Source: a virus
Lineage: Duplodnaviria > Caudoviricetes
IMG/VR virus record: IMGVR_UViG_3300017784_002919
Span: 1-30,383 of that record
Direction: 5' to 3' (one strand)
Length of the DNA: 30,383 bases
Shown in pieces: positions 501 to 30,237 of the stretch. Position numbers and translations under genes: made by a program. How positions within the stretch are numbered: the first letter of the stretch is position 1; the number at the start of each line of letters is the position of its first letter. The notes under the pieces were generated by a model that saw nothing but the letters and a program-made list of their open reading frames with translations, did not search any database and was not told the DNA's origin.

Positions 501-962
501 ATGGCGAATGGTATAACATACGGAATAAATTTCCCTTTTAGACAAAGTATTAAAGGTCAGTACCTTTCTTTGTCTGAAAAAACGGATGAAGAAATTCGTT
601 CAAATCTAATACATTTACTACTTACTAGAAAAGGTAGTAGGTATTATTTACCTGATTTTGGTACTAGACTATACGAATTTATATTTGAACCTTTAGATGG
701 TGAAACCTTTGGTGTTCTTAGAGGGGAAATTGAGTCGGCTATTAACACCTTCATACCGAATTTAACAATACAAAGTATTAAAATAGAACCATATGTTAAT
801 AGTGAGCCTTCTTTAGGTGAATTAGTTGTACCTGAACAAGACATACCAACCTATGCGGTGCCCGGAGCTAACACAGAAGAATATACGGCAAAAATAAAAA
901 TTGAATATATTGATGAAAGTAATGCTTTTGGAAGTAGACAATTTGTAATAATTAATTTATAA
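501..962 (+). CDS. Baseplate wedge protein, GPW/gp25 family
   Basis: GINFPF...IRSNLIHLLLTRKGSRYYLPDFGTRLYEFIFEP matches the gp25 consensus (L.T.xGER...P.FG..L...+FEP). Confidence 0.92.
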   Translation: MANGITYGINFPFRQSIKGQYLSLSEKTDEEIRSNLIHLLLTRKGSRYYLPDFGTRLYEFIFEPLDGETFGVLRGEIESAINTFIPNLTIQSIKIEPYVNSEPSLGELVVPEQDIPTYAVPGANTEEYTAKIKIEYIDESNAFGSRQFVIINL

Positions 963-964
963 CG

Positions 965-2806
965 ATGGCAAATAGAAAAATATCTTACACTGAAAGAGAT
1001 TTTGAAGGACTAAGACAGGACCTGATAGACTATACTCAACAATATTATCCCGATTTAATTCAAAATTTTAATGATGCTTCTGTATTTTCGGTATTAATGG
1101 ATTTAAACGCGGCTATTGGTGATAACTTAAATTATCATATAGATAGAAGCGTACAGGAAACTGTTTTACAATATGCCCAACAAAGGTCTTCTATTTTTAA
1201 TATTGCAAGAACTTATGGATTAAAAATACCTGGATATCGACCTTCAGTTGCCGTTATTGACATATCGATTACCGTACCCGCTTATGGTGATTCTGAAGAT
1301 ATACGTTATTTAGGTATTCTAAGATCTGCAGCACAATTTAATGGTGGGGGTACATCATTTGAAACTGTTTATGATATTGATTTTGCCTCCCAATTCAATA
1401 GAGAGGGTTATATTAATAGAACGAAAATACCACAATTTAGTGAAAATAATTCTGCACCTACAAGTTATATTATAACTAAAAGGGAGATAGTGGTTAATGG
1501 TACTACTCAAGTATTTAAAAAAGTTGTAACATCGGCAGATGTATCACCATTTTTTAATTTCTTTTTACCTGAAAAAAATATCTTAGGGGTTACTTCTATT
1601 ATCCAAAAAGATGGAACTAATTATCAAGCGACACCGTCTTTCACTGAATTTGAAACATCGCCGGATAGGTGGTATGAAGTGGATGCGTTAGTTGAAGATA
1701 CCGTATTTATTGAAGACCCAACTAAACCTGTTGATAAGGCAGGTGTAAAAGTTGGTAGGTATTTAAAAACTGAGAATAGATTTATAACTGAATATACTCC
1801 TGAAGGGTTTTTAAAAATACAATTTGGTGCTGGTACAGTAACACCTGAAGAACAACTAAAACAATTTACAACGGTAGGGGTTCCTTTAAAATTACAAAAT
1901 TATCAAAACAATATTGGACTTGGTTTAACGGTTAAACCAAATACCACTTTATTTGTTCAATATAGAACGGGAGGTGGATTAGGGAGTAATGTCGGAGTTG
2001 GGTCTATTAATCAAGTTGGAATTATTGATTTTGCAGTTAATGGACCATCTGATGTAATTAATAGTAATGTAACACAATCTATAAAAGTTAATAATGTGAC
2101 TGCCGCGATTGGAGGGGCCAATCAACCATCAGTTGATGAGGTTAGAAATATGGTTACATATAACTTTGCGGCACAAAAAAGAGCGGTAACAATTAATGAT
2201 TATAAATCTTTAATAGATAATATGCCGGGTAGATTTGGTGCCCCTGCTAAAGTTTCAATAACAGAATACAATAATAAAATATTAGTTAAGATATTATCAT
2301 TCGATACTGAAGGGGCATTAACTCAGACAATATCGAATAATTTAAAAACTAATTTGGCTACTTATCTTTCTAAATATAGAATGATTAATGATTATATTTC
2401 TATTGAGGTGGCTAAAGTGATTGACCTTGAGTTTGAATTTTTTATTGTGTTAAATTCTACCGGATCACAAAGTCAAGTTATAACTGAAGTTATTAATAAT
2501 GTTACGAATTACATGTTACCTTCAACAAGAGAATTAGGTGAAAATGTAAATGTATCTGAAATTAGACAACTAATCCAAAATATTGATGGAGTAAATACCC
2601 TTTCTGAAGTTAGAGTTTATAATAAAGTCGGTGGTATTTATTCTTCATCTGAAACGTCACAAAGGTATGTTGATACAACAACAAAACAAATAGAACTTAT
2701 AGATAACACAATATTTGCTGAACCTGACCAAATATATCAAATAAGGTACGCAGCAAAAAACATAAAGGTTAGGGTTAAAAACTTAACAACCGTAGACTTT
2801 TCATAA
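965..2806 (+). CDS. Baseplate wedge subunit, T4 gp6 / P2 gpJ-like
   Basis: N-terminal RDFEGLRQDL...LNYHIDR...AQQRSS...ARTYG, central IQFGAG and VQYRTGGG..SNV, and GGAN...AQKRAVTINDY. It follows gp25. Confidence 0.9.
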   Translation: MANRKISYTERDFEGLRQDLIDYTQQYYPDLIQNFNDASVFSVLMDLNAAIGDNLNYHIDRSVQETVLQYAQQRSSIFNIARTYGLKIPGYRPSVAVIDISITVPAYGDSEDIRYLGILRSAAQFNGGGTSFETVYDIDFASQFNREGYINRTKIPQFSENNSAPTSYIITKREIVVNGTTQVFKKVVTSADVSPFFNFFLPEKNILGVTSIIQKDGTNYQATPSFTEFETSPDRWYEVDALVEDTVFIEDPTKPVDKAGVKVGRYLKTENRFITEYTPEGFLKIQFGAGTVTPEEQLKQFTTVGVPLKLQNYQNNIGLGLTVKPNTTLFVQYRTGGGLGSNVGVGSINQVGIIDFAVNGPSDVINSNVTQSIKVNNVTAAIGGANQPSVDEVRNMVTYNFAAQKRAVTINDYKSLIDNMPGRFGAPAKVSITEYNNKILVKILSFDTEGALTQTISNNLKTNLATYLSKYRMINDYISIEVAKVIDLEFEFFIVLNSTGSQSQVITEVINNVTNYMLPSTRELGENVNVSEIRQLIQNIDGVNTLSEVRVYNKVGGIYSSSETSQRYVDTTTKQIELIDNTIFAEPDQIYQIRYAAKNIKVRVKNLTTVDFS

Positions 2807-15916: not shown

Positions 15917-18586
15917 ATGAATTGTATTACTGGATATACTAATGGTGTTTACTCTTATGTTGATTGTTGTGGACTCACAAGAGTTGGGGTATCTTCAGGT
16001 GAGACCGTATGTCTTAACCAAGAATATTCCGGTAGTGTTGTAAACATTGTAATCAACACTGGAAGTACATGTACGACTAATTGTACTGATTTACCGGTTA
16101 TTGGGTATTATTTTACCGTGACAGGTACTTGCGATTCACCAACAGGTACTATAGTCATAAATCCAATAGGGGGGACTCCGCCGTATACTGTTGACCCTAT
16201 ATACCCAACGGGTCATGGGTTAAATACACAAACAGGCACAACTCAAATCGTATATACAGGTCTTAGCGCCACAACTTACGTATTTAGATTAAACGATAGT
16301 TTAGGGTATCAAAACGCTGAAACCTACATTAATATAGCTGTTGGCGGTTGTTATGAGGGTAATATTATAGATGTTAACGGAACTAATTGTGGATTAACTA
16401 ACGGTTATCTAGCGGTAAGTGGATCATCACTTTTTCCACCATATGATTTATTATTATATAAAAATGGATTATTATCATTAATTGAGACTGCGCAGGCATT
16501 TCCATACACTTTTACAGAGTTAAATGCTGGGGTTTATTATGTTTTAATTTCGGATAATAGTGTAACTACCGCTAAGACTGAAAATGTTGTAATATCTGCA
16601 AGTACTGAAATTAATTTTGGTCTATGGAAAGTTGACACCTCAAAATGTTTATTAGATACCGGTAAGTTAGCGGTAACTGGAATTACAGGTGTTGGACCAT
16701 ATACGTATTTATGGTCTAATGGGCAAACCGGTCAAACAATCACTGGGTTAACTATTGGAGAGTATTCGGTGACGGTAACCGGCATAAATGGGTGTGAGCT
16801 TACAAAATCAAGTAATGTTGGGTCTGCCGAACAATTAGGTGTTGGATTAATAAATAACACAACCCCAAGTTGTTTTAATAGTAACGGTAAAATTGAGATA
16901 ACATTAACGGGAGGTACTGCGCCTTTTTACTATTCTGCGTCGTCTGGTAATTTTGGGGTTACATTATCAGATACTTTCACAATGAGTGGGTTACCAAGTG
17001 GTGACTATTCTATTTTAGTAAAAGATGCTAATTTCTGTACTTTAAGTATTTTAACAACACTTAACACGGTTAATGGGTTTAGGGACGTTAAAAATGTAAT
17101 AACAAATTCTGTTTGTAATAAAAATAATGGGTCTTTAAAAACAACCATTAATGGGTTATATGGGTTTTATTTATATTCTTTATCCGGTCAAAATACAAAT
17201 GTTGTTTATGAGGAGTATAGTCAAAACCAAAATGTAACTTTCAGTGATTTAGTTTCTGATACTTATTTATTAAAAATTTCAGGACAATCTAGTAGTTGTC
17301 TTTATACGGAAATAATAGAAATAAGTGCTATAAACAAATTTAATTTAACTGCAACAACAACTCCGTCTTCTTGTGGGTCACCAAACGGGTCGATATCCGT
17401 TAAAGTTGGTACTGGATATACGGAACCTTTAGATTATATATTGAGTGATGGTCAAAACCTAATTGATGTTTCGTTTAGTTCTTACACGTTTAATTATTTA
17501 ACCCCTGGTGGATATGTATTACAAGTTATTGATTCGGAAAATTGTATGGTATCTTTGGATTTGAATATACCTTTAAGCGGTAATTTATCGTCAACACTTA
17601 CTAAGAGTGAATGTAAAAACAGTAATGATGGTATTGCTACTGTAACCATTTTTGAAGGTACCCCACCATTTACTTATAATTGGTCAGATAATGTGCCGTC
17701 AGGAGGTACGGGAAGTACTGTGACAGGACTTTCAGGTGGAACATATGACGTAACCGTAACCGACAAAAGTGGGTGTACTAATTATTGGCCTTTTACAATA
17801 ACTTGTAATCAAGTAATTGTGTCTGGTAGGTCAAGATATAATATTTTTAATAAACCTTTTATTAATACTTCAGGTACTAAGAGGTCGATATCTAAAATGT
17901 TGAATGAAGGGTTTATTGATTTAACTACGGGATATACTAATTGTATTTTAAATAGTGCCGTTTTAGAGGCGGAGTTTACAATAAATGGTTCGGCACATAC
18001 ACAAACCTTTATATATAGTGATGACGGAGCATGGCAAAGAGCAATTGAAACCATATTAGAGAGTATTCCACAAATCACTTCATACACCGTTAATGTTTTA
18101 AACAATGTGTTAATAATCGTTTGTAATTGTGACCAAATGGGTAATAGCTTCTTTAAGTTAGAATTATCAATTACATATGACATTAGTTGTGACCAAGTAA
18201 AAACGCCAACGCCAACTCCGACAATGACAATGACGCCTACACCAACACCAACAGTTAGTCCGACACCTACTAGAACACCAACACCTACACCAACCCCTGC
18301 TGGTTTTGTTTGGTATAGTAATGGTGAATATTACAATACTGCCGATGAGGATGTTTGTACGGATAACTTATGTAATGTTAACCTCTATACTACAGGGTCT
18401 TCTATATCAATAGGTAATATAGTTTACACTAACCCTGCATTAACGACTAAATATATAGGAACTAACTTAGACCCTAAAAATGGTGGATGGGCAAGAATTT
18501 ATTTATCAAACAGTTGCCCAATAACAACAAGAAATGTTGTACAAGTTGATGGAGATGGTATTATAATTACAAAGTATACTTGTTAA
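15917..18586 (+). CDS. Cys-rich SprB-repeat adhesin-like structural protein with a Thr-Pro linker and a C-terminal beta domain
   Basis: Repeated units such as C...G.I.+...GGTxP(Y/F).Y.WS...GLxxGxYxVxVxDxxGC (e.g. GVGPYTYLWSNGQTGQTITGLTIGEYSVTVTGINGC). PT tract at 18203-18298. Confidence 0.8.
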   Translation: MNCITGYTNGVYSYVDCCGLTRVGVSSGETVCLNQEYSGSVVNIVINTGSTCTTNCTDLPVIGYYFTVTGTCDSPTGTIVINPIGGTPPYTVDPIYPTGHGLNTQTGTTQIVYTGLSATTYVFRLNDSLGYQNAETYINIAVGGCYEGNIIDVNGTNCGLTNGYLAVSGSSLFPPYDLLLYKNGLLSLIETAQAFPYTFTELNAGVYYVLISDNSVTTAKTENVVISASTEINFGLWKVDTSKCLLDTGKLAVTGITGVGPYTYLWSNGQTGQTITGLTIGEYSVTVTGINGCELTKSSNVGSAEQLGVGLINNTTPSCFNSNGKIEITLTGGTAPFYYSASSGNFGVTLSDTFTMSGLPSGDYSILVKDANFCTLSILTTLNTVNGFRDVKNVITNSVCNKNNGSLKTTINGLYGFYLYSLSGQNTNVVYEEYSQNQNVTFSDLVSDTYLLKISGQSSSCLYTEIIEISAINKFNLTATTTPSSCGSPNGSISVKVGTGYTEPLDYILSDGQNLIDVSFSSYTFNYLTPGGYVLQVIDSENCMVSLDLNIPLSGNLSSTLTKSECKNSNDGIATVTIFEGTPPFTYNWSDNVPSGGTGSTVTGLSGGTYDVTVTDKSGCTNYWPFTITCNQVIVSGRSRYNIFNKPFINTSGTKRSISKMLNEGFIDLTTGYTNCILNSAVLEAEFTINGSAHTQTFIYSDDGAWQRAIETILESIPQITSYTVNVLNNVLIIVCNCDQMGNSFFKLELSITYDISCDQVKTPTPTPTMTMTPTPTPTVSPTPTRTPTPTPTPAGFVWYSNGEYYNTADEDVCTDNLCNVNLYTTGSSISIGNIVYTNPALTTKYIGTNLDPKNGGWARIYLSNSCPITTRNVVQVDGDGIIITKYTC
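18203..18298 (+). repeat. (Thr-Pro)n coding repeat, mucin-like linker
   Basis: TPTPTPTMTMTPTPTPTVSPTPTRTPTPTPTP, encoded with varied codons. Confidence 0.95.
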
Positions 18587-18587
18587 T

Positions 18588-18878
18588 ATGTCTAGTTACT
18601 TAATAATCTCAGGCCAAACAGGAGGAACAATACCATATACGTTTTATGTTTGTGATGAATATGGTAATAATTGCCAAAACGTTGGAACAACTGGTGGTAC
18701 TATAACACTCACCCCATTTTTTCAAACCGCTGGAACGTTGATGGTAAAAACTATTGATAGTGTTGGTTGTGAATTTTTTGAAATTGTAAGTTGCCCTAAG
18801 CAGACACCTACACCGACATTTACACCGACACCAACACCGACATTTACACCGACACCTACTCCTACACCAACGATATAA
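18588..18878 (+). CDS. Small Cys-containing protein (single SprB-like beta module) with a C-terminal Thr-Pro tail
   Basis: GGTIPY.FYVC...C...MVKTIDSVGC...CP followed by TPTPTFTPTP... It is a paralog of the 18908 and 25034 ORFs. Confidence 0.75.
   Translation: MSSYLIISGQTGGTIPYTFYVCDEYGNNCQNVGTTGGTITLTPFFQTAGTLMVKTIDSVGCEFFEIVSCPKQTPTPTFTPTPTPTFTPTPTPTPTI
18810..18857 (+). repeat. 24-bp tandem duplication inside the PT tail
   Basis: ACACCGACATTTACACCGACACCA / ACACCGACATTTACACCGACACCT (23 of 24 identical). Confidence 0.9.
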
Positions 18879-18896
18879 AAAAAGGATATTCATCCA

Positions 18897-18903
18897 TATT
18901 TAT
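18897..18903 (+). promoter_or_regulatory. TATTTAT putative late-promoter motif
   Basis: Intergenic, 4 nt before ATG 18908. Confidence 0.5.
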
Positions 18904-18907
18904 TAGT

Positions 18908-19129
18908 ATGATAATATATGTAACAGGAGTAACAAGCGGGACAAGTCCATATGACGTATTTTTATGTAATACTGGGTATACGTCTTGTTTTTTAATATCT
19001 GGTAGTTGTCAAATACCACCTACGGTTGTTATTAATACCAATTATTTTTTTCCTAATTATAATTACCTTGGTTTAAAAATAGTAGACACAAATGGGTGTA
19101 TTTTTACAAAGAATCAGATTTGTCCATAA
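18908..19129 (+). CDS. Small Cys-containing protein, paralog of the 18588 ORF
   Basis: SGTSPYDVFLC...SC...LKIVDTNGC...ICP. Confidence 0.75.
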   Translation: MIIYVTGVTSGTSPYDVFLCNTGYTSCFLISGSCQIPPTVVINTNYFFPNYNYLGLKIVDTNGCIFTKNQICP

Positions 19130-19194: not shown

Positions 19195-20442
19195 ATGAAA
19201 ATTTTTATTCAAATTGCATCATACCGTGATCCAGAATTAAAACCAACAATTATTAGTTGTGTTGAAAACGCAAAACATCCTGAAAATTTAGTTTTTGCTA
19301 TTGCAAAACAATATCATACCGATGATACTTTTGATGATTTATCAGAATATGATGAAGATGAAAGGTTTAAAATCCTTAATATCCCTCACCAAGAATCTAA
19401 AGGTGCGTGTTGGGCTAGACACCAAATTCAACAACTATACAATAATGAAGAGTACACTCTTCAAATAGATTCCCATATGAGATTTGAAAAAAATTGGGAC
19501 GAGACATTAATTGGTATGTTAAATCAATTAAAAGATATTGGAATTCCAAAACCATTATTAACGTCTTACGTACCATCATATAACCCACAAAATGATCCTG
19601 AAGATAGGGTACAAGTACCTTGGAGAATGGCTTTTGATAAATTTATTCCTGAAGGTGCGGTATTCTTTTTACCTGAGACCATACCTAATTGGGAAGAAAT
19701 AAATATGCCGGTAACATCAAGATTTTATTCTGCACATTTTTGTTTTACTTTAGGACAATTTGCAAAAGAAGTCCAACATAATCCTGAATTTTATTTTCAT
19801 GGTGAAGAAATCTCAATTGCCGTTAGAGCGTTTACTCATGGTTATGATTTATTCCACCCACATAGAATTGTTGCTTGGCATGAGTATACTAGAAATGGTA
19901 GAACAAAACAATGGGATGACGATAAAGAATGGCATTTAAAAAATGATTCATCACACCTATTAAATAGACAGTTATTTGGTATGGACGGATTAACTCAAGA
20001 AGGTCATGACGGAAAATATGGGTTTGGTACCGAAAGAACACTTAGAGATTATGAAATATACTCTGGGTTATTATTTGAAAAACGTTCCGTACAAGATTAT
20101 ACTTTACAGAAAAAATACCCACCAAACCCTTACGACTATCAAAATGAAGAAGAATGGATTAATAGTTTTACTAAAAAAGTGACTAAGTGTTTTACTATTG
20201 ATAAAGAAATGGTTCCCGAGAATGATTATGAATTTTGGGTTGTTGCGTTTAATAGAGAAGGTGGTGAGACTATATTTAGACAAGATGAGGATGTCAATGA
20301 AGTAAGAAAATTATTACAAGGTGACAGTCAAAAAATTAAAATATGTAGAACATTCCAAACTGCTGAGACACCACATACGTGGGTATTATGGCCATACTCA
20401 ACATCTAAAGGGTGGTGTACAAAAATAGAGAGAGTATTATGA
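19195..20442 (+). CDS. GlcNAc-family (GT60, Skp1/polypeptide alpha-GlcNAc transferase-like) glycosyltransferase
   Basis: IFIQIASYRDPEL, SKGACWAR, LYNNEEYTLQIDSHMRF..WDE and FHGEEI..AVRAFTHGYDLFHP are hallmark motifs of the GlcNAc/GT60 family, with DSH in place of DxD. Confidence 0.9.
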   Translation: MKIFIQIASYRDPELKPTIISCVENAKHPENLVFAIAKQYHTDDTFDDLSEYDEDERFKILNIPHQESKGACWARHQIQQLYNNEEYTLQIDSHMRFEKNWDETLIGMLNQLKDIGIPKPLLTSYVPSYNPQNDPEDRVQVPWRMAFDKFIPEGAVFFLPETIPNWEEINMPVTSRFYSAHFCFTLGQFAKEVQHNPEFYFHGEEISIAVRAFTHGYDLFHPHRIVAWHEYTRNGRTKQWDDDKEWHLKNDSSHLLNRQLFGMDGLTQEGHDGKYGFGTERTLRDYEIYSGLLFEKRSVQDYTLQKKYPPNPYDYQNEEEWINSFTKKVTKCFTIDKEMVPENDYEFWVVAFNREGGETIFRQDEDVNEVRKLLQGDSQKIKICRTFQTAETPHTWVLWPYSTSKGWCTKIERVL

Positions 20443-21044
20443 CGGTAGAAGTAGTGGTTGCTAAATACAATGAAGATGTATCTTGGACAAAAAAACTTAA
20501 GTATAAAGTAACTATTTACAATAAAAACGAAGCGGATAATCATTTATTTGAAAGAAATCTGTTAAATTACGGTAAAGATGCACATACTCACTTACACCAT
20601 ATTGTAACAAATTGGTACAATTTAGATGATTACACAATATTCTTACAAGGAAATCCATTTGAACATGATTGTGAAACTTGTGTAGAATTTATCAATGATT
20701 GTGATTTTACCAAACCATTTTATCCAATTGGACCAACTTACATTAGAGATAATGATGGCTGTATTAAGCAAGCTATAGATTATTGTGAAAAAATGGAAAT
20801 TGAATACAAATTGCCATTTATGTTTATAGGTGGTATGCAATGTATTGTAAAGAAAGAACAAATTAAGAAAAGATCATTAGATTTTTATGTAAAACTAATG
20901 GAAAGTATAGCAAAAAACATTTCGACTTCTTCGTTTTCTGGAGGAGCACATGGAAACGATCCACAAATATGGGCACTAGAATATAGTTGGCCTACAATAT
21001 TTGGTGTAAATGAAATGTTAACACATAAATTACATAATTGTTAA
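20439..21044 (+). CDS. DUF3431 family protein (putative glycosyltransferase-like)
   Basis: VVVAKYNEDVSW...NYGKDAHTHLHHIVTNWYNLDDYTIFLQGNPFEH...LEYSW..IFG. The ATG at 20439 overlaps the GT60 stop (ATGA). Confidence 0.85.
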   Translation: MTVEVVVAKYNEDVSWTKKLKYKVTIYNKNEADNHLFERNLLNYGKDAHTHLHHIVTNWYNLDDYTIFLQGNPFEHDCETCVEFINDCDFTKPFYPIGPTYIRDNDGCIKQAIDYCEKMEIEYKLPFMFIGGMQCIVKKEQIKKRSLDFYVKLMESIAKNISTSSFSGGAHGNDPQIWALEYSWPTIFGVNEMLTHKLHNC

Positions 21045-21046
21045 AA

Positions 21047-21865
21047 ATGAAAAAAGTTTTAGTGGGGTTATCAAACAATATTTCCCAAAACATAACAAAA
21101 ATAAAAGTATGGTCCCATAGTTTTAAAGCGCATACTAATGGGGATGTTGTTTTACTTTGTGCCAACACCAGTGACGATGAGATACAAATGTGTCACGAAT
21201 TGGGTATTATACCTATCCCTGTGATTGTTGAAGATACTTGGTATATTAATAATAAAAGACTTAAACATACATTAGATTTTATTAATGAATCCGATTACGA
21301 TTTATTTATGGTTACAGATGTGTTTGACGTTGCATTTCAAGGAGACCCATTTATTAAAATGAATGATGAATATGATGTATTTGTTGGTTCTGAGGGGTTA
21401 AGAATTAATGAAGAACCATGGAATGGTGATGTTATTTCTAAAGTTTTCCCTGAAGATTTGAATATTTGTATAACTCACGACATCATATGTTCAGGAGTTA
21501 TTGGTGGTAGAAAAGACGCATTAATTAAGGTATATAGTAAATTAAATGGTATGTGTGAGAATAGTAATAACTCCCACAACATAAAAGACCAAGCTGCATT
21601 AATAATAATGATTGCAAAAAATGAGATTGATAGATTGAAAATATTCTCTTTTGATGATAGTTGGACATTACATTGTGCCGTTGGAGGACCTACACAATTT
21701 TTTGAATCGTGGGGATTTAAAAACACTTTAATTAATAGATATGGAGGTATACCATATCTTAAAGATAATAAACTTTACAACCATAAAGGGGATAAGTATG
21801 ATATTGTACACCAATTTAATAGAATCCCTGAATGGAATGAAATTATAACAAAAGAATATGAATAG
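21047..21865 (+). CDS. Putative GT-A nucleotide-diphospho-sugar transferase
   Basis: TDVFDVAFQGDPF, ICSGVIGG, DQAAL and IVHQFNR follow the D..D+.FQ..PF / (N/C)SG...G / DQ / H pattern of GT-A enzymes. Confidence 0.7.
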   Translation: MKKVLVGLSNNISQNITKIKVWSHSFKAHTNGDVVLLCANTSDDEIQMCHELGIIPIPVIVEDTWYINNKRLKHTLDFINESDYDLFMVTDVFDVAFQGDPFIKMNDEYDVFVGSEGLRINEEPWNGDVISKVFPEDLNICITHDIICSGVIGGRKDALIKVYSKLNGMCENSNNSHNIKDQAALIIMIAKNEIDRLKIFSFDDSWTLHCAVGGPTQFFESWGFKNTLINRYGGIPYLKDNKLYNHKGDKYDIVHQFNRIPEWNEIITKEYE

Positions 21866-22604
21866 TGTTTATTGTGTTTGTACAACACCTGATGTATACC
21901 CTGCGTATGCAAACCATTGGATAAATTTTCCAAAAGAAATGACTTGGGTTTCGGACATTAGTAAAGATTCAACATTTAATCTTGGTTTCACATATACCGA
22001 AAAAGAATTAAGAGATAGATTAAAATTTTATGGTGACGTTAGTAAAAAACACTATTGGAACTCTTATGGTAATAGAAATATTATATGGTTTTATGCTCAT
22101 CTTAGGATGTTAAATTTTTATATTGACCACCCTAATCACGATTATTATTGGTTTTTTGATGATGACGTAAAAATGAAAGATTGGAATTTATTTTTTGAAG
22201 GTACCGATAAGGACGACTCAGATTTTTTAGGGTACTTTATTTTTAAAGATGAAAATGTTAGTTCACAAGAAAATATACCAAAATTAGACAACAGAACAAC
22301 ATCACAACATATGTGGTTTGAAAGATTTCCTGGTGATGGCGATTTATTACCTGAAGATGTAAATGAAAAATTTGGTTCATTTTTTCCGACTAATAGATTC
22401 TCAAATCGAGCAATGAAAAAACTATTAGAAATACACGAACAAGGTTTACACGGGTATTCGGAAGGTTTTGTACCAACAATGTTAAATAAGTACGGATTTA
22501 AACTTAATACGCTAATTAAATCTGATAATACATCTGATTTATTTGACGTTAATCAAGTGGATATACAACATAAACATATGAAAATAAATTGGGAATGGAT
22601 ATAA
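21858..22604 (+). CDS. Putative GT-A glycosyltransferase
   Basis: HDYYWFFDDDV (DxD after a hydrophobic strand), then RFS..A+..L and EGFVPT. It lies within the GT cassette. Confidence 0.6.
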   Translation: MNSVYCVCTTPDVYPAYANHWINFPKEMTWVSDISKDSTFNLGFTYTEKELRDRLKFYGDVSKKHYWNSYGNRNIIWFYAHLRMLNFYIDHPNHDYYWFFDDDVKMKDWNLFFEGTDKDDSDFLGYFIFKDENVSSQENIPKLDNRTTSQHMWFERFPGDGDLLPEDVNEKFGSFFPTNRFSNRAMKKLLEIHEQGLHGYSEGFVPTMLNKYGFKLNTLIKSDNTSDLFDVNQVDIQHKHMKINWEWI

Positions 22605-23386
22605 AAAAAACGGCAATCGTAACCGCACTATTTGATATAGGTAGAGATAAATGGGACAATTACACCATGTCTTATCACACATATTTATGGTGGATGAGAA
22701 ACATTCTTTATTTAGATACAAATATGATAATTTACACTGAAGAAAAATTTAAAGACGAAATTTTAGGTTACAGAAAAGAAGTTGACCCTGATTTAGAAAA
22801 AACAATTATGATAATACAACCTTTAGAGGAAATAGAGGGTTATAAAACGTTTTTTGAACCATTAGATAATTTAATGACAAGTGACGAATTTAAAAAGAAA
22901 ATAGATTTTGACGTACCTGAAATGATTAAACCATTATATAATGTTGTAATGTTTAGTAAGTTATTTTATATTTTGGATTCATTTAAAAAGGGGTTATTTG
23001 ATGCTGATTTATATGTTTGGGCAGATGCAGGAGTGATTAGAGATGACCACCCTAAAAAAAATGTGAAATGGCCAAATTTAAATAAGATTAATTCGTTAGA
23101 TAATGATAAGGTTACGTTTTTTTCTCATCATGATTATGTGATGTTTGAGGATGCGGAATTCCATGCATTATCACAGACACGATTTATACAAGGTGGGGCA
23201 TTATTTGTTCCAAAACATAGAGTTATTGATGTGTGTGAAACATTTAAAAATGTAACCCTTGATGCGATTTCAAATGGGTATGTTGGAAGTGATGAAAAGA
23301 TGTTTGATTTTACATATGTTAAACAACCTGAGTTATATAATCTAATAAAGTGTGATTGGAGAGAATATATTGAGTTATTCTTATGA
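22595..23386 (+). CDS. HtrL/YibB (WlaTC-like) family glycosyltransferase
   Basis: TAIVTALFDIGR..W, P+YN++MFSK, YVWADAG, FIQGGALF and GSDE+ motifs. Confidence 0.8.
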   Translation: MDIKKTAIVTALFDIGRDKWDNYTMSYHTYLWWMRNILYLDTNMIIYTEEKFKDEILGYRKEVDPDLEKTIMIIQPLEEIEGYKTFFEPLDNLMTSDEFKKKIDFDVPEMIKPLYNVVMFSKLFYILDSFKKGLFDADLYVWADAGVIRDDHPKKNVKWPNLNKINSLDNDKVTFFSHHDYVMFEDAEFHALSQTRFIQGGALFVPKHRVIDVCETFKNVTLDAISNGYVGSDEKMFDFTYVKQPELYNLIKCDWREYIELFL

Positions 23387-23442: not shown

Positions 23443-25029
23443 ATGGCAGATGTAGTTTTAAGTAGTTGTTGTTATAACTATGTGTATAGCGCAACGGGGT
23501 GGTCAGGTGATACAACCGTAGGGGTGGGATTTGAGATTTCTAATGACCCTAATATTATGGATGGTTGTTATACTATTGTTAGTGGTGTGACAGGTACTAC
23601 GGTGACTTTTTACGGTATTGCGACTTCAAATGCCGGATGCGGAGCAGACTGTTTACCTTTTTGTTGTTCAAATACTTTATGTTTAAATATTCAAAATAAT
23701 ACGTATTCAGGTTATAGTGGTAACTATGGATTTTTAGGTTCATATAATGGGTACCCTTATTGGACTGGCGGTTCTCCATCTTTTGGTTACGTTTATTTTA
23801 ATAATATTAATTGGTGTTTAAGTAACGCATTAGGAGGAACTTGTTATTTCTTTGGGTCTAACCCAACATCCTCAACATGTCCGGATTTAAGTGAATCTAT
23901 ACTATATGAGGGACCTTGTGAAACGCCGACGCCAACATCGGATCCGTGTAGTAGTTTGGATTTTAATGTTATTTTGGATTGTAATTTTTATACCCCGACT
24001 CCGACACCTACATCTACCTCAACACCAACACCTACACCAACGCCAACACCCACACCAACTCCTTGTGTATTTACTGCGACAATAACCTTTAGTGCTTACA
24101 CCACACCGACTCCTACACCAACACCAACTCCTACACCAACACCAGCTTATGAATATTCGATTACTGGAGAAACTGTGACGTTTGTGATTGAAAGTGGTAA
24201 TTTTAATTGTCCAACAATTAAAATATTGAGGGATTGTGGTAATGGTGATTTATATTATGTTGGAGAACCAATAATTAGTGGAACAACCCCTTTAAATACT
24301 GGAACAACATTCCAAGCGGTGATAAATAATACACCAAGATGTGTGACATATATAAGTCAAATTACTGGAAGTGCTAGTGAGTATTTAAATTCAGTTGTGC
24401 AGGTTTATTCAGGATGTAATGTATGTATTACACCAACACCAACACCAACACCAAGTCCGACACCAACACCAATTCCGAAACCAAGTCCAACACCTACCCC
24501 GACTGTATTCTATTCCCCTAACACTCAATTTGTATTCACATCTTGTGATTCTAATTTAATGATAATACAAGATGAGTATCCGCCACGTAATATTGTTGTT
24601 GGTGATGTAATAAAAGACCAAATAATCGGATGTTATACGTATATAGGTAATTTTGTAAATTATTACCCGCCTTCCGACTATAGATCGTCCAACCAACCAA
24701 TCTTTACCGCAACTACCGCGACGACTTATAGTAGTTGTTTAAGTTGTTTAATACCAACACCAACTCCAACACCATCATATAATGTATGGAATGGACAAGG
24801 GAGTTTTAGTGTTTCTTGTCCTATTTGTCAATTAACTGATGGTGGAGCTGACTTAACGTTCTACACGTCTGTTAGTGATGTGAGTTTGATTGATGGCGTC
24901 TTTATTTATCAAGACACCGCACTTTCTAATCCAATTGTTGAGGATTATATTAAATATGGTGGATATGTATACACTGTCGACACTAATGGTGAAATAAAAC
25001 AATTATGTAGAGTAAACGGTAACTGTTAA
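23443..25029 (+). CDS. Cys-rich modular protein with five Thr-Pro tracts (mucin-like virion appendage or decoration protein)
   Basis: PT tracts at about 23923-23940, 23992-24063, 24100-24144, 24430-24504 and 24754-24777 separate Cys-bounded modules. Confidence 0.75.
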   Translation: MADVVLSSCCYNYVYSATGWSGDTTVGVGFEISNDPNIMDGCYTIVSGVTGTTVTFYGIATSNAGCGADCLPFCCSNTLCLNIQNNTYSGYSGNYGFLGSYNGYPYWTGGSPSFGYVYFNNINWCLSNALGGTCYFFGSNPTSSTCPDLSESILYEGPCETPTPTSDPCSSLDFNVILDCNFYTPTPTPTSTSTPTPTPTPTPTPTPCVFTATITFSAYTTPTPTPTPTPTPTPAYEYSITGETVTFVIESGNFNCPTIKILRDCGNGDLYYVGEPIISGTTPLNTGTTFQAVINNTPRCVTYISQITGSASEYLNSVVQVYSGCNVCITPTPTPTPSPTPTPIPKPSPTPTPTVFYSPNTQFVFTSCDSNLMIIQDEYPPRNIVVGDVIKDQIIGCYTYIGNFVNYYPPSDYRSSNQPIFTATTATTYSSCLSCLIPTPTPTPSYNVWNGQGSFSVSCPICQLTDGGADLTFYTSVSDVSLIDGVFIYQDTALSNPIVEDYIKYGGYVYTVDTNGEIKQLCRVNGNC

Positions 25030-25033
25030 AAAT

Positions 25034-25252
25034 ATGAGTACACAAGTAAGAATACAATCAATAACCGGAGCGACTATACCACTTAATCTATGGATATGTG
25101 ATAGTTGTGAAGACACGGCATCTTGTCAATATATTGAAACAATTAGCACATTACCTCATACTTTTATATTACCTTCTATATATGAGGTGGCGACACAATA
25201 CGCAATAAAATTATATGGCTCAAGTGGTTGCACTTTTTGTCAAGTATATTAA
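25034..25252 (+). CDS. Small Cys-containing protein, paralog of the 18588 and 18908 ORFs
   Basis: ITGATIPLNLWIC...SC...AIKLYGSSGCTF. Confidence 0.7.
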   Translation: MSTQVRIQSITGATIPLNLWICDSCEDTASCQYIETISTLPHTFILPSIYEVATQYAIKLYGSSGCTFCQVY

Positions 25253-29802: not shown

Positions 29803-30237
29803 ATGAAAAGAATAGTAAGGTTAACTGAATCTGATTTAACAAGAATTGTTAGACGAGTTATTAGTGAACAAACAACTAAATTAACCCCTGAAAATAGTAT
29901 GGTTGGTAAAACATATGTTTTTGAGAAAAAAACATGTAAAGTAGAAAAAGCATTTAAATTACCTGTTAATCTGGCAGCGGATCCCAAAGGGAATGATATC
30001 GGCGGCTACCTTGTTTACCCATCTCAAGGATGTAGAATAAATACTGGTATTGTTGATGGTGTACCTGGATATATTTACATGCCAGAAACTAATGGAGGTG
30101 CTTCGTTTAGTAGGTTTGAGTGGTCAGGTAACGATTGGTTTACTTTTGATGATGGTACAAAAGCTGAACCTAGATATGCGTTAGGTCGTATTGAATTTGT
30201 AACTACGGAATCTTATAGAAGAAACTATTATAGATAA
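29803..30237 (+). CDS. Hypothetical protein with the leader MKRIVRLTESDLTRIVRRVISEQ
   Basis: 144-aa ORF with an A-rich initiation region and an amphipathic leader containing LTE and ISE. Confidence 0.75.
   Translation: MKRIVRLTESDLTRIVRRVISEQTTKLTPENSMVGKTYVFEKKTCKVEKAFKLPVNLAADPKGNDIGGYLVYPSQGCRINTGIVDGVPGYIYMPETNGGASFSRFEWSGNDWFTFDDGTKAEPRYALGRIEFVTTESYRRNYYR

Follow-up and report, generated by a model that had tools for sequence, protein, structure and literature searches.

We analysed IMG/VR virus record IMGVR_UViG_3300017784_002919, a contig of 30,383 bases from a large uncultured phage (the window, always taken at its full length) with a GC content of roughly 32%, whose genome is known only from that contig, and found a five-gene cassette at 19195-23386 that probably directs mucin-type O-glycosylation of the phage's own proteins. 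We consider it likely that a soluble enzyme resembling glycosyltransferase (GT) family 60 would, in the host cytoplasm, start the sugar chain by attaching an N-acetylhexosamine (probably alpha-GlcNAc) to Thr in neighbouring Thr-Pro (TP) repeats, and that the cassette proteins G3, G4 and HtrL would extend or cap the chain, giving glycosylated stalks on likely baseplate or appendage proteins. The proposed benefit would be stiff, protease-resistant stalks with a variable surface coat. The direct basis is the gene content, the GT-A folds of the GT60 and G4 models, the lack of a transmembrane (TM) helix, the cross-lineage linkage of GT60 to TP and the variable middle of the cassette. From these we infer the donor sugar, the Thr acceptor, the order of the later steps, the presence of the TP proteins in the virion and the benefit; all four downstream genes may extend the same glycan. 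An earlier sequence-only reading of this DNA had described five coupled genes, and the cassette indeed consists of five co-oriented open reading frames (ORFs) whose ends overlap or abut:

19195..20442, + strand: GT60-like (PF11397) soluble GT-A enzyme, 415 amino acids (aa); predicted initiating polypeptide HexNAc-transferase.
20439..21044, + strand: DUF3431 protein, about 201 aa from ATG 20439 (Pfam 9.4e-13); optional cassette member.
21047..21865, + strand: G3, probable GT-A glycosyltransferase, about 272 aa (motifs, family matches of relatives).
21858..22604, + strand: G4, GT-A fold glycosyltransferase, 248 aa (model, motif, Foldseek).
22589..23386, + strand: HtrL/YibB-family protein, short form, 263-265 aa (Pfam 3.2e-28); usually last in the cassette.

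The first cassette protein matches PF11397 (GlcNAc), which we take to be CAZy GT60, with an E-value of 1.6e-67 and 228.9 bits against a cut-off of 21. The residues D92-S93-H94 (DSH), H202-G-E204-E205 and H229 are invariant across 30 GT60-like sequences, and H229 may be the family's C-terminal His; a DxH motif is given as the mark of GT27/GT60 in the accessible text of PMC7185993. The structural model has a GT-A fold, and its 28 best structural matches are all polypeptide N-acetylgalactosaminyltransferases (ppGalNAc-transferases), an outcome of the profile and structure searches that agrees with the original family assignment. By profile, by DxH/xE/His motifs and by its ppGalNAc-transferase-like fold, the protein is predicted to belong to the family. 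It lacks the type II TM anchor of the Golgi initiators (19-residue Kyte-Doolittle maximum 0.79, with strand 1 starting from residue 3). A separate C-terminal beta domain occupies about aa 327-414; Pfam gave no ricin-type lectin match in this protein, and the fold search barely covered the domain.

Candidate acceptors lie on both sides of the cassette, as had been claimed, with two TP proteins upstream and one downstream, in a co-oriented block headed by baseplate genes:

15917..18586, + strand: 889-aa SprB-repeat, Cys/Thr-rich protein (Pfam SprB 1.9e-21), TP tract at nt 18203-18298; candidate acceptor.
18588..18878, + strand: 96-aa protein with a TP tract at its end (nt 18804-18869); candidate acceptor.
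23443..25029, + strand: Cys-rich protein of 528 aa carrying eight TP runs (nt 23923-24774); locally the strongest acceptor candidate.
501..2806, + strand: baseplate wedge genes (gp25-like, gp6/J-like; Pfam/PHROG), head of the co-oriented structural block that contains the cassette.

The tract occupies aa 763-794 of the 889-aa protein and aa 73-94 of the 96-aa protein, and a 73-aa ORF without TP sits between the 96-aa gene and GT60. Because third codon positions are mixed within the window's tracts, these are probably protein-level repeats rather than products of simple DNA slippage. Among orthologues, the tract of the 889-aa protein ranges from absent to 21 units and the 96-aa protein mostly lacks one; an orthologue of the 528-aa protein directly follows GT60 or HtrL in many relatives.

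The association with TP genes holds across relatives. A close GT60 is encoded in 325 IMG/VR stretches, the best 80 of which were analysed, and viral loci were collapsed at 90% identity into 34 non-redundant groups. In 30 of the 34 groups, three consecutive TP units, (TP)3, were present no further than 10 kb from GT60. Six control dipeptides gave no match in any group; several of the controls are GC-richer than TP, but TV is not. When whole records were scored (50 from 83 loci, redundant and short ones dropped), (TP)4 was present in 41 and the reversed pattern in none. Among 50,697 annotated phage records, only XacN1, Xoo-sp13, CM1 and RAS14 encode a close GT60. The three isolated jumbo phages examined from among these GT60 carriers contain 29, 26 and 19 (TP)3 matches and have GT60, a carbamoyltransferase and a long HtrL near baseplate genes. 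Ten chosen large phages without GT60 have no (TP)3 match at all; they were hand-picked, two being HtrL-carrying cyanophages and eight coming from 95 baseplate matches, including Atu_ph07 and Rak2-like phages, which the available text of PMC5852040 places as the nearest group to XacN1. Unrelated neighbours of GT60 have only the TP tract in common.

Two further arrangements were seen in viral DNA. Phage TP or Ser-Pro (SP) tracts of 85, 44 and 46 units flank a GT60-G3-G4-HtrL cassette in L379 (1-16750) and L395. In crAss-like contigs binned in metagenome-assembled genomes (L321, 307-13864; L330, L354), TP-tract proteins, a muzzle protein among them, surround GT60 and a Gly_transf_sug enzyme, with no HtrL; L321 has a crAss muzzle domain, and L330 and L354 resemble it.

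The linkage recurs in prokaryote assemblies, some of whose GT60 contigs are phages binned with bacteria. Of 55 GT60 loci found, 52 were analysed after three short contigs were dropped, and (TP)3 was present at 20 of them, in 12 cases within 2.5 kb of the GT60 start (control dipeptides, 0-3 loci). In genomes G139, G143 and G145, two of which are incomplete metagenome-assembled genomes, the only (TP)4 match of the genome lies in the gene adjoining GT60. The bacterial TP carriers are varied: proteins with a twin-arginine-like leader and a Por secretion tail in Saprospiraceae, PqqD domains in Gemmatimonadota and VgrG in Burkholderiales, while the TP-tract proteins of Verrucomicrobiota and Jiulongibacter have little else that is recognisable. 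In a quick tree of 47 GT60s the TP-linked cases are spread over separate branches. Saprospiraceae/Lewinellaceae sequences form the sister group of the window's phages there (SH-aLRT 99), a position that would fit a Bacteroidota host, though it is no proof of one.

Several of these bacterial loci have a recurrent organisation. In Jiulongibacter sediminis (L319, 6944-13142) and in L342, L306, L307, L309 and L337, GT60 and HtrL adjoin a TP-rich protein with a twin-arginine-like leader, with or without a carbamoyltransferase; some of these proteins also have a Por secretion tail, and in L319 another GT60 lies 3' of the TP gene. Such leader-bearing proteins are candidates for glycosylation in the cytoplasm before export. 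A Gemmatimonadota gene directly upstream of GT60-HtrL (L318, 7215-7937; L320, L323, L325, L327, L356) has a product that combines a PqqD domain and an RR motif with a tail rich in TP and resembles a modified-peptide precursor. In L334, L343 and L352, one or sometimes two GT60s lie in Burkholderiales/Dyella type VI secretion clusters near VgrG with long TP tails.

Turning to the other four cassette proteins, the DUF3431 and HtrL assignments had been made from sequence and were upheld by Pfam, as was GT60; of the two genes called GT-A-like, G4 was supported by its model fold and G3 remains probable only, through profile matches of its relatives. The likely start of DUF3431 is ATG 20439, in an ATGA overlap with the GT60 stop, and the protein may be a transferase. 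The G3 start is likely ATG 21047, giving 272 aa as in homologues. Neither G3 nor G4 of the window has a Pfam match at E<=0.1. The G4 model (pLDDT 96) found human B3GNT2, B3GalT6 and B3GalT5 as best Foldseek matches (E 1.8e-5 to 2.8e-5), with modest TMq values of 0.45-0.51, and D101-D102-D103 is invariant in its family; on this model G4 is assigned as a GT-A fold glycosyltransferase. The G3 family has the invariants D94-V-F-D97 and HQFNR, and 18 of 51 aligned members match PF03407 Nucleotid_trans (nucleotide-diphospho-sugar transferase; best 1.8e-5) and four match GT_PLOD; the window's own G3 matches neither, and it is probably a GT-A glycosyltransferase. HtrL, probably starting at ATG 22595 or TTG 22589, matches PF09612 (HtrL_YibB) and reaches 105.6 bits against TIGR02192, below the cut-off of 264.9 for this equivalog. 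Its invariants in 27 sequences, W144-x-D146-x-G148 and G233-x-x-E236, may correspond to GT-A motifs, and HtrL is a probable glycosyltransferase.

Among the forms that this variable cassette takes, the order GT60-(DUF3431)-G3-G4-HtrL is a conserved one. HtrL lies downstream of GT60 in 31 of the 34 viral groups, and these 31 have 19 different layouts between the two genes; nine groups have an empty middle, and up to 12 other genes intervene in some relatives. In 59 G4-anchored loci (not dereplicated), HtrL was found in 58, G3 in 57, GT60 in 54 and DUF3431 in 26, and 31 of the loci encode a protein in which three or more TP/SP units follow one another. The window's layout is a stable cassette subtype, and the five genes do not form a fixed pathway. 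Across relatives the constant part is GT60, with HtrL nearly so, and the intervening genes turn over in the manner of an O-antigen locus; the glycan would therefore differ between related phages. The 276 middle genes form 60 clusters; representatives of 58 were scanned, the G3 and G4 clusters being left out. They include GTs (GT25, GT10, GT11, GT61, GT7-like, Galactosyl_T, GT_PLOD, RXYLT1), seven FkbM methyltransferases and CmcI, a carbamoyltransferase, a sulfotransferase, DegT aminotransferases, acetyltransferases and a nucleotidyltransferase, and 20 of the 58 have no match at E<=0.01. When records were picked by an independent structural marker, 25 of the 40 longer ones (among 80), most of them 10-50% complete, had PF11397.

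HtrL itself varies. In the close relatives L249 (19934-20731), L259, L263, L265 and L277, its place after GT60 is taken by another gene, of 265 aa, whose HYEDDVW motif looks invariant. A long form in L005 (12252-13931) and most relatives has an extra C-terminal region of roughly 290 aa, for which neither Pfam nor HHalign gave a match, and is sometimes fused to FkbM or TylF methyltransferases. In cyanophages Bellamy and B23 (L221, 3001-6328; L222), HtrL belongs to sugar-modification clusters, and neither GT60 nor TP tracts occur there.

GT25, GT10, GT11 and methyltransferases, which occur among the middle genes, are usual enzymes of lipopolysaccharide (LPS) synthesis. The cassette might remodel the host surface (LPS or lipooligosaccharide (LOS), capsule or surface proteins) against rival phages and sit among structural genes only as a variable island. 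HtrL is mentioned in the accessible parts of Acinetobacter LOS outer-core papers, and cyanophage GT clusters such as those that hold HtrL are read as host-surface modifiers in the available text of PMC7824862. We find this improbable, as it leaves the ppGalNAc-transferase-like initiator and the TP linkage in phages and bacteria unexplained. No TM helix is evident in the five cassette proteins (19-residue Kyte-Doolittle maxima 0.32-0.99), and no gtrAB, flippase or DNA-modification family matched among the 22 window proteins scanned with Pfam and PHROGs, both as first reported; nor did either library give a window match for the GtrABC-type features (flippase, bactoprenol GT, membrane GT). Moreover, virion proteins of XacN1 stain for sugar, according to the accessible text on that phage. 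Phage proteins might instead be glycosylated elsewhere (capsid, tail tube or non-repeat Ser/Thr), or GT60 alone might act on TP with the downstream four serving another glycan. Mycobacteriophages carry their glycans on the capsid and the tail tube (as cited in the available text of PMC12619734), many neighbour orthologues lack TP tracts, and GT60 stands alone beside the 528-aa orthologue in L026, L028, L239, L241, L251 and L252. This we regard as unlikely: no feature other than the TP tract unites the unrelated neighbours, and G3, G4 and HtrL directly follow GT60 in most G4-anchored loci.

Glycosylation of TP proteins primed by GT60 would also bear on isolated phage XacN1. Its virions gave at least two Schiff-positive bands, reported in 2018, and ORF328 and ORF334 were suggested as the enzymes, according to the available text of PMC5852040, which neither assigns ORF334 to a GT family nor mentions an acceptor or TP tracts. 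ORF334 is a homologue of the window GT60 (46% identity), an HtrL-domain gene lies four genes downstream of it, and ORF325, ORF350, ORF232-237, ORF372 and ORF384 are TP-rich. The likeness to the window thus covers GT60, downstream HtrL and many TP-rich proteins, with virion glycoproteins detected in XacN1; XacN1 differs in having a carbamoyltransferase and a long HtrL instead of the window's DUF3431-G3-G4, and the window's baseplate is nearer to Flavobacterium immuto phages than to XacN1. The XacN1 DNA was mapped by BssHII, NaeI and SpeI digests (same text), which speaks against heavy DNA glycosylation at the sites of these enzymes. Phage GTs often act on DNA, as the accessible text of PMC12619734 notes, and the cassette could in principle hypermodify phage DNA with sugars; we hold this to be extremely unlikely, given those digests, the peptide-transferase fold and the lack of a base-modifying family among the 22 scanned window proteins and the scanned middle-gene representatives. 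That GT60 primes TP proteins, as the sequence-only reading proposed, is well supported by the ppGalNAc-transferase-like fold, the controlled co-occurrence, its recurrence on separate branches and with unrelated carriers, and the Schiff staining of XacN1.

Protist GT60s described in the accessible text of PMC6939170 and PMC8724618 comprise Skp1 Gnt1 and mucin initiators. The window enzyme shares with them (Dictyostelium and T. cruzi mucin initiators; Skp1 Gnt1) the PF11397 match, the DxH motif and the ppGalNAc-transferase-like fold; it is soluble like Gnt1, and extending GTs follow (available text of PMC8724618, PMC6939170, PMC7185993). Unlike them, it is phage-encoded, would work in the bacterial cytoplasm and has the extra C-terminal beta domain and, unlike the Golgi enzymes, no TM anchor. 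Its candidate acceptors are (Thr-Pro)n tracts with no consistent prolyl hydroxylase, and it is accompanied by HtrL, DUF3431 and a changing set of genes. By analogy, the cassette would work like protist mucin-type initiation, and it departs from Golgi initiators, the Skp1 pathway and Gtr cassettes. A Skp1-like route, with GT60 modifying hydroxyproline in TP tracts after a prolyl hydroxylase, appears very unlikely. Soluble Gnt1-type GT60s require hydroxyproline (accessible text of PMC6939170), and one near-complete GT60 phage genome has two PF13640 genes, but across five near-complete genomes these prolyl-4-hydroxylase-like families are found in only one (PF13640) or none (PF13759), with none in XacN1, which makes the hydroxyproline acceptor allowed for at first unlikely. 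The 58 scanned representatives of the middle genes matched no prolyl hydroxylase family; a hydroxylase that is divergent or supplied by the host could still act.

Several observations weigh against TP-directed glycosylation of the virion. The recognisable tail genes of the window are only the gp25-like and gp6/J-like ones, 16 kb upstream, and its TP proteins have no virion annotation, which qualifies the placement among tail genes noted at the outset. TP tracts come and go among orthologues of cassette neighbours. The lowest Foldseek E-values for the GT60 model belong to the teichoic-acid GTs TarS and RmlT, and no conserved DxD was found among 22 DUF3431 sequences. No (TP)3 is nearby at 32 of the 52 prokaryote-assembly loci, and (TP)4 is absent genome-wide in 15 of 44 GT60-carrying assemblies, although L306 and L342, scored as lacking tracts, have looser TP-rich neighbours. 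Of the viral records bearing (TP)5 (2 of 64 collection parts; 44 searched out of the 50 longest), PF11397 was found in 9 of 44 and in one of six near-complete ones. TP tracts persist in L254, L262 and L266, where GT60 is missing both from the site and from the rest of the contig (30-32 kb), and GT60 is also absent from a 162-kb record. The three GT60-positive isolated phages form a single clade, and the ten controls were chosen by the authors. For XacN1, the accessible text of PMC5852040 does not assign the Schiff bands to proteins and reports tail fibres as not visible by electron microscopy; the phage has a second GT, ORF328 (GT9), and host enzymes may also be the source of the XacN1 virion sugar.

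If TP-directed glycosylation is right, a specific acceptor is proposed for prokaryotic and phage GT60s, and the virion glycoproteins of XacN1 would be explained; the parts of the literature surveyed name no acceptor for these enzymes, and we found no publication joining phage, GT60 and Thr-Pro, though subscription papers and supplements may hold more. Mucin-type O-glycosylation would extend to the bacterial cytoplasm, HtrL/YibB and two families without a name would gain suggested activities, and surface-glycan variation would be implied for an abundant phage group (7,619 protein clusters among 7,998 scored candidates). A soluble single-chain O-HexNAc initiator working in bacteria would serve glycoengineering. 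A broader reading is a real possibility, if not one we would back yet: GT60 together with HtrL as a portable system for mucin-type O-glycosylation in prokaryotes, (Thr-Pro)n as a transferable glycosylation tag on unrelated proteins (jumbo-phage baseplate proteins, crAss-like muzzles, type VI secretion spikes, type IX cargo), the GT60-HtrL middle as a virion O-antigen locus giving each jumbo phage its own glycan type, and HtrL/YibB, G3 and G4 as new glycosyltransferase families. In aquatic jumbo phages (Moraphages) with predicted Bacteroidota hosts, the available text of PMC12619734 reports four unassigned core GT orthogroups.

Other systems offer partial parallels. The initiator of serine-rich repeat adhesins is the GT-B enzyme GtfA/B. 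In these Gram-positive adhesins, a low-complexity surface repeat is likewise glycosylated inside the cell by adjacent transferases and further decorated (accessible text of PMC5578698). The repeats there are Ser-rich and the adhesins leave the cell by accessory Sec; neither of these, nor the GT-B initiator, is seen here. In mycobacteriophage virions (Freeman et al. 2023, as cited in PMC12619734) and chlorovirus capsids (as cited in PMC5852040), virus GTs decorate their own structural proteins; these glycans lie on capsid or tail-tube subunits, and the available text describes no GT60-primed route to mucin-like repeats.

All long ORFs of the window lie on the + strand, and no capsid or terminase gene was found in it. 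After the baseplate block come large unannotated proteins, the 889-aa protein, two small ORFs and the cassette; 3' of the cassette lie the 528-aa protein, a second SprB protein, a 736-aa protein and a RuvC-like gene. Small Cys-containing ORFs of 96, 73 and 72 aa (18588-19129 and 25034-25252) flank what in relatives is a slot of variable 200-1000-aa genes, and are possibly adaptors for exchangeable appendage proteins. A 144-aa ORF at 29803-30237, starting MKRIVRLTESDLTRIVRRV, has no family match in Pfam or PHROGs.

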